Below are positions 48,020 through 49,573 of a stretch of DNA of 64,000 bases, one piece after another; the first letter of the stretch is position 1; every line of letters starts with the position of its first letter. Under the pieces are notes generated by a model that was given only the letters and a program-made list of their open reading frames with translations, ran no database searches and was not told the DNA's origin. A program made the position numbers and the translations under genes. The stretch comes from Escherichia coli (lineage in GTDB: Bacteria; Pseudomonadota; Gammaproteobacteria; Enterobacterales; Enterobacteriaceae): the NCBI RefSeq assembly GCF_036507355.1, contig NZ_AP027877.1. One strand, 5' to 3'.

Positions 48020-48076
48020 TCTTTACCAGCACCATTCCCGCAAGGGAATGGTCAGATTGATGACAAAGGCAAAACT

Positions 48077-48176
48077 GCCTGATGTGCTTCGCTTATCAGG
48101 CCTACATGGTTCCTGCAATGTATTGAATTTGCACGATTTTGTAGGTCGGATAAGGCGTTAACGCCGCATCCGGCAT
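48077..48176. repeat. REP cluster (two palindromic units)
   Basis: gcctgatgtgcttcgcttatcaggcctac ... gtaggtcggataaggcgttaacgccgcatccggcat. Confidence 0.8.
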
Positions 48177-48190
48177 GAATAACGCGCACT

Positions 48191-49573
48191 TTGTCAACAA
48201 TCTGGTCATTTCAGCAAGGGAATGGTGCTTCTCCGCACACTTTGCTTACGGCGACGCTTGCACGTGAAACAGGGGTAAAGTCAGATCTCGACCTGATGTA
48301 TACCGTAGTAACAAGCCCGGATACGCCAAAAGCCAACTTCTGGGGACATATGCCAGAAACGGTAAGCTCAGCAGACGGAACGCAGTTTGAGCGGATGAAA
48401 CTGTGGGCCGAAATGGGGGCAACCAGCGGTGGCGGTTATTCGCTCACTAAAGTGAATATAAATAATGAAAGCTGGCCTGCGCCATATATTACCCAGCGAT
48501 ATTTGCCGGAGCTTATCCCTTGTGAAAGCGCACGATATCCATCATTGGATGAGCTTCAATCTTTATACAACCGCTATCCGAATGGCTCTATCGTCAATGA
48601 GATTGGCTGGCCGGTGAAACAGAATAGCTATGTGTGGTGGACAAATGCAGATTGTCCTGCGGGCGCGAATTCTTGTGAATCATTTGACTTCAACACAGGT
48701 CAACTTGTGACTGTATCTAAAAGCCGCGCCTTCCAGGCGTGCCTGGTGCACCCTCACTCAACGGTTTCTACCGTCACCCTGACGTCAACGGCATTTGACT
48801 CCACCGCTCAGGCGGCGAAAGTGAAGAAGGGCGAGGCAATGCCAGTCACCGTGACGGTGAAAGACAGCGCCGGGAAACCTGTGCCAAATGTGGCGTTTAC
48901 TCTGCGACGTGGTGATGCCTCTCCGCGTAATAGTGGGGCGACGCTATATGGCGATGTGGCGGCTATGGATGATATTACCATCCAGCCATCATCGGGGGCG
49001 GCTACCCTATTGGCGGTTAGTGGGAACGAGATCAGTGGCGTGACGGGGGCAGACGGCACGGCAAACTTTACTGTTCGTCAGGACAATACGCCGGGTTATA
49101 AAATGCCGCTGACGGTAACGCTGGATAAATACCCAACAGTGACTGCAATGATGGACACTATTTTCACCGTATTGACCAGCCCAAATGTATCTTCTGCTCA
49201 CTTCTGGGGGCATATGGCAGACACGGCAGTGGTGAATGGAAAAACATTACATCGACCGATACTGACAACTGAATTACCGTCCGGGGCCAATCCCGTATCC
49301 TCACCGATTATTAACTACGAAAACTGGGCTTCTGCGCATATTACTGATGCCAGCAAATGGGATATCTCGAAGCAGTGTGGAAATATAGAAAATGCACCGA
49401 CATACAATGAGTTAGAGACATTGTATACTGTGTTTAATTCGCTGGGATGGCCAGCTTCGCCAAGTTTCCCTTACTTGTCCTCTCAACGGTGTGGGATGGA
49501 CGAGAGCACTGGCACAGAGGATTGTAGTATCACGTTAGCCAATAAACCTGGTCTGGTTACTTGTTTCCAGTGA
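48191..49573 (+). pseudogene. Ig-like (Big) domain protein fragment with an internal ~150-aa domain duplication; no canonical start; likely remnant of a rat/invasin-like gene
   Basis: 460-codon frame opens at a TTG with no SD, first ATG is 35 codons in with no SD, no signal peptide; Big-like central domain flanked by two homologous Cys-containing domains (FWGHM motifs). Confidence 0.45.

Follow-up and report, generated by a model that had tools for sequence, protein, structure and literature searches.

The window, by which we mean the whole 64-kb stretch of DNA analyzed here, covers the der-sinH-sinI-ratA-xseA-guaB locus of Escherichia coli (the "ila" or CS54-like island), and its best identity among complete RefSeq E. 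coli genomes is 99.0–99.3%. The gene order is der, a zinc-ribbon gene, sinH, sinI, and a 460-codon open reading frame (ORF), beyond which lie the convergent xseA, guaB, and guaA. The first gene of the island, sinH (44818–46998, +), is intact and encodes a 726-aa intimin-like inverse autotransporter, with a Pfam IAT_beta match of 350.9 bits and a length equal to that of the sinH annotated in strain A30. Also intact is sinI (47054–48019, +), which encodes a SinI family autotransporter-associated protein of 321 aa (NCBIfam NF040711, partner_SinI, 420.6 bits against a cutoff of 165) and is annotated by RefSeq in strains A30, 33F4, and O145. The conserved neighbor xseA (49642–51018, −) forms the right edge of the island; the ORF, downstream of sinH-sinI and convergent with xseA, occupies the location of a RatA-like gene. 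The sinH-sinI-ratA cluster has been named "ila," is described as derived from the Salmonella CS54 island, and has been linked to adherence and invasion by uropathogenic E. coli (PMC12928451). Elsewhere in the window, an IS1 element with a 9-bp target duplication is found at 55470–56237.

Between sinI and the main part of the ORF lies a REP/BIME cluster bracketed by two copies of a small hairpin. The first copy (48031–48052, +; inverted repeat I3) has a perfect 9-bp stem and a GCAA loop, with a DNA fold of −9.3 kcal/mol (z = −5.7), and is left uncalled by the terminator scan because it has no T-run. It is followed by a 151-nt REP/BIME unit (48054–48204) with 16-nt inverted ends, CAGATTGATGACAAAG and CTTTGTCAACAATCTG (inverted repeat I1, the repeat listed as I2 being a palindrome). 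The unit has the makeup of a REP/BIME element, namely an inverted pair of REP palindromes with a linker, occurring at many chromosomal loci: sequences 79–92% identical to it are found at other places in over 5,000 E. coli genomes, its linker matches Rfam ES036 at 48098–48140 (−) with 52.4 bits (gathering score 37.6), and both REPs show weak matches to the REP-derived naRNA4. A second, degenerate hairpin copy follows at 48207–48226 (+; direct repeat D2, 90% identity over 20 nt). Each hairpin copy holds one copy of the 13-mer GCAAGGGAATGGT, which occurs exactly twice in the window (48040–48052 and 48214–48226; 0.08 expected by chance) as part of a full repeat of about 20 nt (CATTCCCGCAAGGGAATGGT vs. 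CATTTCAGCAAGGGAATGGT). A first-pass annotation of this DNA had noticed the 13-mer on both sides of the REP cluster; both copies are real, although the positions it gave them (48043–48055 and 48215–48227) were off by 3 and 1 nt, respectively.

The ORF itself (48191–49573, +; 460 aa) begins with a TTG in a frame opened by a TGA at 48176–48178, and its first in-frame ATG stands at 48296. A Shine-Dalgarno sequence was looked for before the start-type codons within the first 40 codons, including TTG 48191, TTG 48242, and ATG 48296, and none was found; the 25 nt preceding the two candidate starts (gcatccggcatgaataacgcgcact before the TTG and aggggtaaagtcagatctcgacctg before the ATG) bear out the earlier statement that both lack one. 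A Sec signal peptide, sought at the N-terminus by hydropathy and charge, was not recognized either. Averaged over 10 aa, hydropathy peaks at 1.09 when the protein is read from the TTG and at 0.18 when it is read from the ATG, compared with 2.86 for the intact RatA-like protein, 2.35 for SinI, and 2.32 for SinH, and the first 10 residues contain no K or R, in agreement with the original observation that no signal peptide is encoded. The ORF thus has no start and ribosome-binding site conserved in orthologs, as a functional gene would, and its upstream 57 nt correspond to intergenic DNA in intact alleles. A read-through fusion between sinI and the ORF was also considered, since 47054 and 48191 share a frame (both 2 mod 3); three in-frame stops intervene, and the fusion that the first-pass annotation had entertained does not apply to this window.

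The Intact RatA-like Gene and Its Remnant

The annotations of three genomes, A30, 33F4, and O145:H28 str. RM9872, place an intact gene of 6,420 nt between sinI and xseA (A30 9511–15930, 33F4 909–7328, and O145 9515–15934), whose 2,139-aa product is named "adhesion domain-containing protein" in RefSeq. An allele collinear with these intact genes at a coverage of at least 80% was found in 48 of 5,426 complete E. coli genomes. The intact protein starts with a Sec-type signal peptide (MDGTLKLIKAITAVFLLFLSFQVGA), the hydrophobic core of which accounts for the hydropathy of 2.86 given above, and continues with an N-terminal region of ~198 aa and seven tandem BIg21 plus InvE_AD modules. A motif common to the mature N-termini of SinI and RatA changes in step in the two proteins from one island type to another.

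What survives of this gene in the window is its 3' 1,326 nt (48248–49573, +), comprising native codons 1699–2139 and the stop, or 441 of the 2,139 residues. Pfam recognizes seven InvE_AD and seven BIg21 stretches in the intact protein, against two and one in the remnant, the latter well above the cutoffs: InvE_AD (PF05689) scores 162.5 bits in two stretches (cutoff 32) and BIg21 (PF05688) 87.8 bits (cutoff 27.4). Native residue 1699 falls inside BIg21-6 (native residues 1588–1721), and the remnant accordingly consists of 23 aa of a broken BIg21-6 followed by adhesion domain 6 of 7 (AD6; 48317–48742, +; PF05689, ORF residues 43–184, A30 residues 1722–1863), the seventh and last Ig-like domain, BIg21-7 (48755–49180, +; PF05688, residues 214–328, aligned by phmmer to A30 residues 1868–2009), and the C-terminal adhesion domain 7 of 7 (AD7; 49181–49570, +; the second PF05689 stretch, A30 residues 2010–2139). 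AD6 contains four Cys and the motifs FWGHM, ELQSLY, and GWP; it is 29% identical to AD7 (E = 1e-9), and FWGHM, ELxxLY, and GWP are common to both. Pfam and the alignment therefore uphold the initial reading of an Ig-like domain flanked by two homologous, Cys-containing domains, and what that reading took for an internal domain duplication is the last two of seven ancient modules. An inverse-autotransporter barrel (IAT_beta, PF11924) was sought in the ORF and in the intact RatA-like proteins and is absent from both; it is present in the neighboring SinH.

The NCBIfam model for RatA-like proteins (NF011844) matches the remnant with 694.5 bits over model positions 2253–2683 of 2683, that is, over its C-terminal end and not over its full length (cutoff 3870). 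The intact A30 allele, at 3192 bits, also scores under this cutoff, a consequence of its being the shorter variant with 2,139 aa.

The Deletion Junction

A comparison of the window with A30 by blastn gives two collinear blocks, in which 44000–48248 corresponds to A30 5201–9449 and 48246–50000 to A30 14603–16357. The blocks overlap by 3 nt in the window, a TTA (48246–48248, +) that is found on both sides in A30, and the junction joins A30 9449 to 14606 (at the level of bases, ...CACTTTGCTTA/CGGCGACG...; in a wider view, ...CACACTTTGCTTA/CGGCGACGCTTG...). The segment missing relative to A30 (9450–14605) measures 5,156 bp, and the gap relative to 33F4 is of equal size. It contains the final 61 nt of the leader, with a GCAGG Shine-Dalgarno-like element 8 nt before the A30 ATG, as well as the ATG, the signal peptide, and the rest of codons 1–1698. 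From 48248 onward, the native frame is restored, with ORF residue 20 equivalent to native residue 1699, and ORF residues 1–19 (MSTIWSFQQGNGASPHTLL) are translated former intergenic DNA.

A collinear intact allele thus surrounds a defined gap, and the junction is reproducible (see below), as would be expected of a pseudogene made by deletion. We conclude with high confidence that the ORF is the nonfunctional 3' part left of the island's third gene, which encodes a RatA-like adhesin, and that it was made by this single 5,156-bp deletion. The suspicion voiced on first inspection, of a pseudogene left over from a larger rat-like gene, can now be mapped to the base. By chance, the deletion left the native frame open into the former intergenic DNA, back to the TGA at 48176, and because the frame stays open there, the remnant looks like a 460-codon gene that lacks only a start.

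The position of the breakpoint also bears on the role of the REP cluster. According to the first-pass annotation, the REP block had disrupted or replaced the original 5' region; an insertion of this kind, marked by the flanking 13-mer duplication and destroying the 5' end of the gene, would account for the direct repeat of ~20 nt that flanks the REP unit, and a divergent island allele (L002, ~76–80% identical, with a frameshifted rat gene of ~8 kb) has no REP unit and a single hairpin. However, window positions 47800–48248, which comprise the sinI 3' end, the hairpin, the REP unit, both 13-mers, and 22 nt more, are 100% identical in A30 and OZ197100 and at least 99% identical in the O145:H28 lineage and other strains, and the intact A30 gene starts 62 nt past the point at which the window diverges. 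The REP unit and both 13-mers are therefore unchanged upstream of an intact gene, and the REP-bearing intact alleles of A30, 33F4, and O145 RM9872 refute the proposal. In addition, the breakpoint at 48248 is downstream of the second repeat copy, with the left end of the deletion 20 nt past the second 13-mer. We give the REP insertion practically no credence as the origin of the truncation; by this comparison the REP/BIME unit is a bystander and not the cause. Since neither the REP unit nor a second hairpin copy is present in L002, both probably go back to an old insertion or duplication, which would predate the truncation and be unrelated to it.

The intact gene is internally repetitive, and repeats such as its seven BIg21 plus AD modules can mislead assemblers, so that a collapse of the tandem modules in a short-read assembly might have been thought to mimic a deletion. 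The left breakpoint, however, is in leader DNA that is unique and not part of the gene, and the two sides of the junction have just 3 nt in common, so that no repeat could have collapsed there; the modules, moreover, are merely ~30% identical at the protein level. The same junction was recovered in four independent Logan/ENA samples, and the product is on record for eight contigs including a 4.64-Mb chromosome. An assembly artifact is in our judgment close to inconceivable, and the deletion is taken as real in what follows.

The ratA leader contains a palindrome, and the left breakpoint falls where its left arm ends. In A30, this palindrome is intact (CACTTTGCTTA-N-TAAGCAAAGTG, or CACTTTGCTTAGC...GTTAAGCAAAGTG; −11.2 kcal/mol, z = −3.7), whereas the window retains a stub of the native leader (48227–48248, +) that ends in the left arm CACTTTGCTTA (48238–48248), the right arm having been deleted. 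It is plausible, though unproven, that the palindrome promoted the deletion through palindrome-stimulated illegitimate recombination at TTA/TTA. Between island types, the palindrome shows two compensatory arm changes.

Carriers, Age, and Expression of the Truncated Allele

An identical 39-nt junction is found in four loci (L005–L008) from independent samples, three in Logan (ERR3330519, SRR17480487, and ERR11525759) and one in an ENA metagenome (ERZ926208). The 39 nt have no exact match among the GTDB species-representative genomes, and none of the complete RefSeq E. coli genomes spans the junction. The exact 425-aa product that would start at ATG 48296 is on record for the eight contigs mentioned above, the 4.64-Mb chromosome being the longest of them, and its translation has been deposited as BED21402.1, "hypothetical protein VEE46_11700 [Escherichia coli]." The four loci for which the DNA was read share the identical junction and so represent one allele and not independent orthologs. 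In L007, 36 substitutions relative to the window are clustered in the 5' part of sinH with only 3 elsewhere, and the allele has therefore seen at least some recombination or divergence.

The deletion itself appears to be recent, because the remnant shows no decay and is identical to the 3' end of 33F4: over its 1,326 nt there are 0 differences from 33F4, 18 from A30, and 16 from O145. It should be noted that the native frame of 441 codons has been kept without a stop or frameshift, which selection could also produce. Given the identity to the intact 33F4 allele, however, the open frame would reflect youth rather than purifying selection.

These observations need to be weighed against the reading of the ORF as a genuine short gene, starting at ATG 48296 or at a noncanonical codon and encoding an AD-BIg21-AD protein of 425–460 aa with a function of its own. 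Its 460 open codons, domains that score far over the Pfam cutoffs, the annotation as a coding sequence by one GenBank submitter (BED21402.1), and the recurrence of the allele in several samples are all compatible with such a gene. A protein of this kind would nevertheless lack a Shine-Dalgarno sequence and a signal peptide despite its extracellular, Cys-containing domains, and the signal peptide of the intact allele maps inside the deleted segment. Codons 1–19 of the ORF derive from what was once intergenic DNA, and the 23 that follow from the end of a broken Ig domain. The four 425-aa loci that were read carry one junction, hence one allele, and the sequence, being identical to the 3'-terminal part of an intact gene, gives no sign of independent evolution. 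Orthologs sharing the start, which the first-pass annotation had named as evidence that would overturn a pseudogene, did not turn up, the only sequences sharing ATG 48296 being those of the exact 425-aa product. The other short relatives that were found (the homolog search listed relatives below 800 aa, full-length relatives being taken from genome annotations) are contig-end fragments or different truncations. We therefore regard a genuine short gene as very improbable and retain the interpretation as a deletion remnant.

As to expression, the promoter scan gave one weak promoter-like site (47993–48020), which overlaps the sinI stop and is uninformative in that it occurs in intact and deleted alleles alike. 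The remnant may be transcribed from this site or by read-through from sinI, the latter being possible because the hairpin after sinI has no T-run; RNA over the remnant would at most be passive read-through from sinHI. Productive translation is not expected, and a product from ATG 48296, even if it were made, would be stuck in the cytoplasm and so could not act as an adhesin.

Gene decay is common at the sinI-ratA-xseA locus. Besides the annotated frameshift in the rat gene of L002, the gene of FDAARGOS_1285 is annotated as interrupted by an IS4-family element, and gene calls in other genomes include fragments of 504, 555, and 574 aa. Other strains carry, in the same place, an in-frame chimera of SinI(1–107) and the C-terminal 352 aa of RatA (459 aa, on at least 24 contigs), which stems from an independent event. 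There are thus at least two independent deletions, the one from the leader to codon 1699, with its left end in the conserved palindrome arm, and the SinI::RatA chimera, and together they hint at a repeated loss of the third gene at this locus. A further-reaching scenario, in which the sinI-ratA interval is a recurrent deletion hot spot and the losses are selected, shedding a large immunogenic adhesin while keeping SinH and SinI, seems unlikely to us. It could include transcription of the remnant with sinHI and weak translation from ATG 48296, and secretion of the chimera as a "mini-adhesin" by means of the SinI signal peptide and N-terminal motif.

The remnant is best described as an ordinary pseudogene, in which a member of a known gene family has been truncated at its known locus; it has already been deposited, though misannotated as a hypothetical protein, and it leaves current understanding unchallenged. 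For annotation, BED21402.1 should carry a note that it is a RatA-like adhesin pseudogene truncated at the 5' end, and in virulence-gene typing of the sinH-sinI-ratA cluster, strains bearing the junction should be scored as ratA-negative. The remnant also adds one precisely mapped instance of an adhesin gene decaying in commensal or non-ExPEC E. coli.

Relation to Known Systems

The closest relatives of the remnant are the E. coli RatA-like proteins (NF011844), with which it shares the sinI-xseA locus, the frame, the C-terminal AD-BIg21-AD architecture, and 98.6–100% nucleotide identity to the 3' ends in A30, 33F4, and O145. It differs from them in having no leader, Shine-Dalgarno element, start, signal peptide, or N-terminal region, and in the loss of five and a half modules. 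RatA (NF011843) and RatB (NF011842) of the Salmonella enterica CS54 island have the same DUF823/DUF824 (InvE_AD/BIg21) repeats and the same neighborhood of sinH, sinI, and xseA, and the remnant matches the C-terminal end of RatB with 351.5 bits and RatA with 232.6 bits. Both, however, belong to different orthologous groups in another species and are full-length secreted proteins, and in E. coli the island contains a single rat gene and lacks shdA (PMC12928451).

At the level of structure, AD6 and AD7 of the remnant can each be aligned with the C-terminal domain of Yersinia InvE (PDB 5n40, "putative invasin"; chain 5n40_A, whole-sequence E = 2.6e-16), with which they share the FWGxM and SLY...GWP motifs; this is the fold behind the Pfam name InvE_AD, and the solved homolog together with the Pfam domains settles the question of the remnant's fold. 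Unlike invasin and intimin, the RatA-like proteins, including the remnant, have no inverse-autotransporter beta-barrel and are therefore not themselves invasins or intimins; at this locus the IAT_beta barrel resides in SinH. The REP/BIME unit is of the familiar E. coli type (Rfam ES036/CssrF; naRNA4 from REP325), a 151-nt unit that recurs across E. coli and here lies outside the gene proper.

By analogy with the ZirT/ZirS/ZirU systems, Rat-like proteins encoded beside SinH-like barrels have been hypothesized to be secreted substrates of the latter (Heinz et al. 2016; PMC4943183). For SinI, a weak match to the ZirU family (E = 1.3e-5) and a match to the C-terminus of SinH were obtained, and both similarities would fit this translocator-substrate hypothesis as far as the intact RatA-like protein is concerned. 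The window differs from such a system in that the putative substrate gene is dead, whereas sinH and sinI are intact.

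Sequences upstream of the RatA-like gene

A palindrome lies 40-70 nt 5' of the ratA start, and in the intact allele of strain A30 (L003:9438-9470) it reads CACTTTGCTTAGC-N-GTTAAGCAAAGTG. The divergent island allele, L002, which is ~76% identical, retains the palindrome as CATATTTTGCTTAATCC-C-GGATTAAGCAAAATATG, and between A30 and L002 its arms differ by two compensatory changes, C-G to T-A both times; this covariation suggests that ratA is controlled through the palindrome, acting either as an operator or as an RNA structure. The window keeps the left arm alone (48238-48248), and the deletion begins exactly where this arm ends.

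The REP/BIME unit is flanked by 41-nt imperfect inverted repeats (window 48028-48229), which are 78% complementary to each other; they are made up of the hairpin distal to sinI, a degenerate second copy of this hairpin, and inverted ends of 16 nt. The island allele lacking the REP unit has a single hairpin. The arrangement resembles what an old insertion or duplication of a REP unit would leave behind.

A possible N-terminal motif common to SinI and RatA

At their mature N-termini, SinI and the RatA-like protein have a short motif in common, which matches within an island type and differs between types, as seen on comparing the SinI N-terminus of the window (47054-47220) with L003:9511-9660, L002:3681-3850, and L002:4779-4950. 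In window-type alleles it reads LRAGQWQ...GTVP in SinI and LKGGQWQ...GTVP in RatA; the forms in the divergent L002 type are AEESAW.DSG.T..FQGTIP and AESAWQDSSDT..FNGTVP. BLASTP gives no better than E=0.001, over 21 aa, and the shared motif is therefore a lead rather than a finding. It could serve both proteins as a signal for targeting or recognition, for instance by SinH.

Variation in sinH and beside yfgH

An ENA gut metagenome contig with the same deletion junction (L007) has a cluster of 36 substitutions relative to the window in the 5' part of sinH (window 44928-45354) and only three elsewhere in 5.2 kb, a pattern that suggests a tract of recombination within sinH.

Inserted between yfgG and yfgH, immediately upstream of the latter, is a 768-bp element (55470-56237), which we take to be a copy of IS1 from its 167-aa InsB-like ORF (55485-55988, minus strand) and its end sequences (ggtaatgactcc... 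and ...gcagcatcacc). It is flanked on both sides by the 9-bp target duplication ttccttgtt, and is absent from the corresponding loci of 33F4, a strain with an intact RatA-like gene, and 2020N21-246-1.

A SinI::RatA chimera in other strains

Other E. coli strains carry a second, independent and larger deletion at the sinI-ratA locus. Its product is a chimera of 459 aa (P0022), in which SinI residues 1-107, including the SinI signal peptide, are joined in frame to the RatA-like protein's C-terminal 352 residues; the equivalent in the window would be 47054-47374 joined to 48515-49573. The chimera is encoded between sinH and xseA (L010:3501-4880, L011:3501-4880, and L012:2383-3762) and occurs on at least 24 contigs, some of them chromosomes of >1 Mb. 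Unlike the window remnant, the chimeric gene retains a ribosome-binding site and start codon and encodes an export signal.
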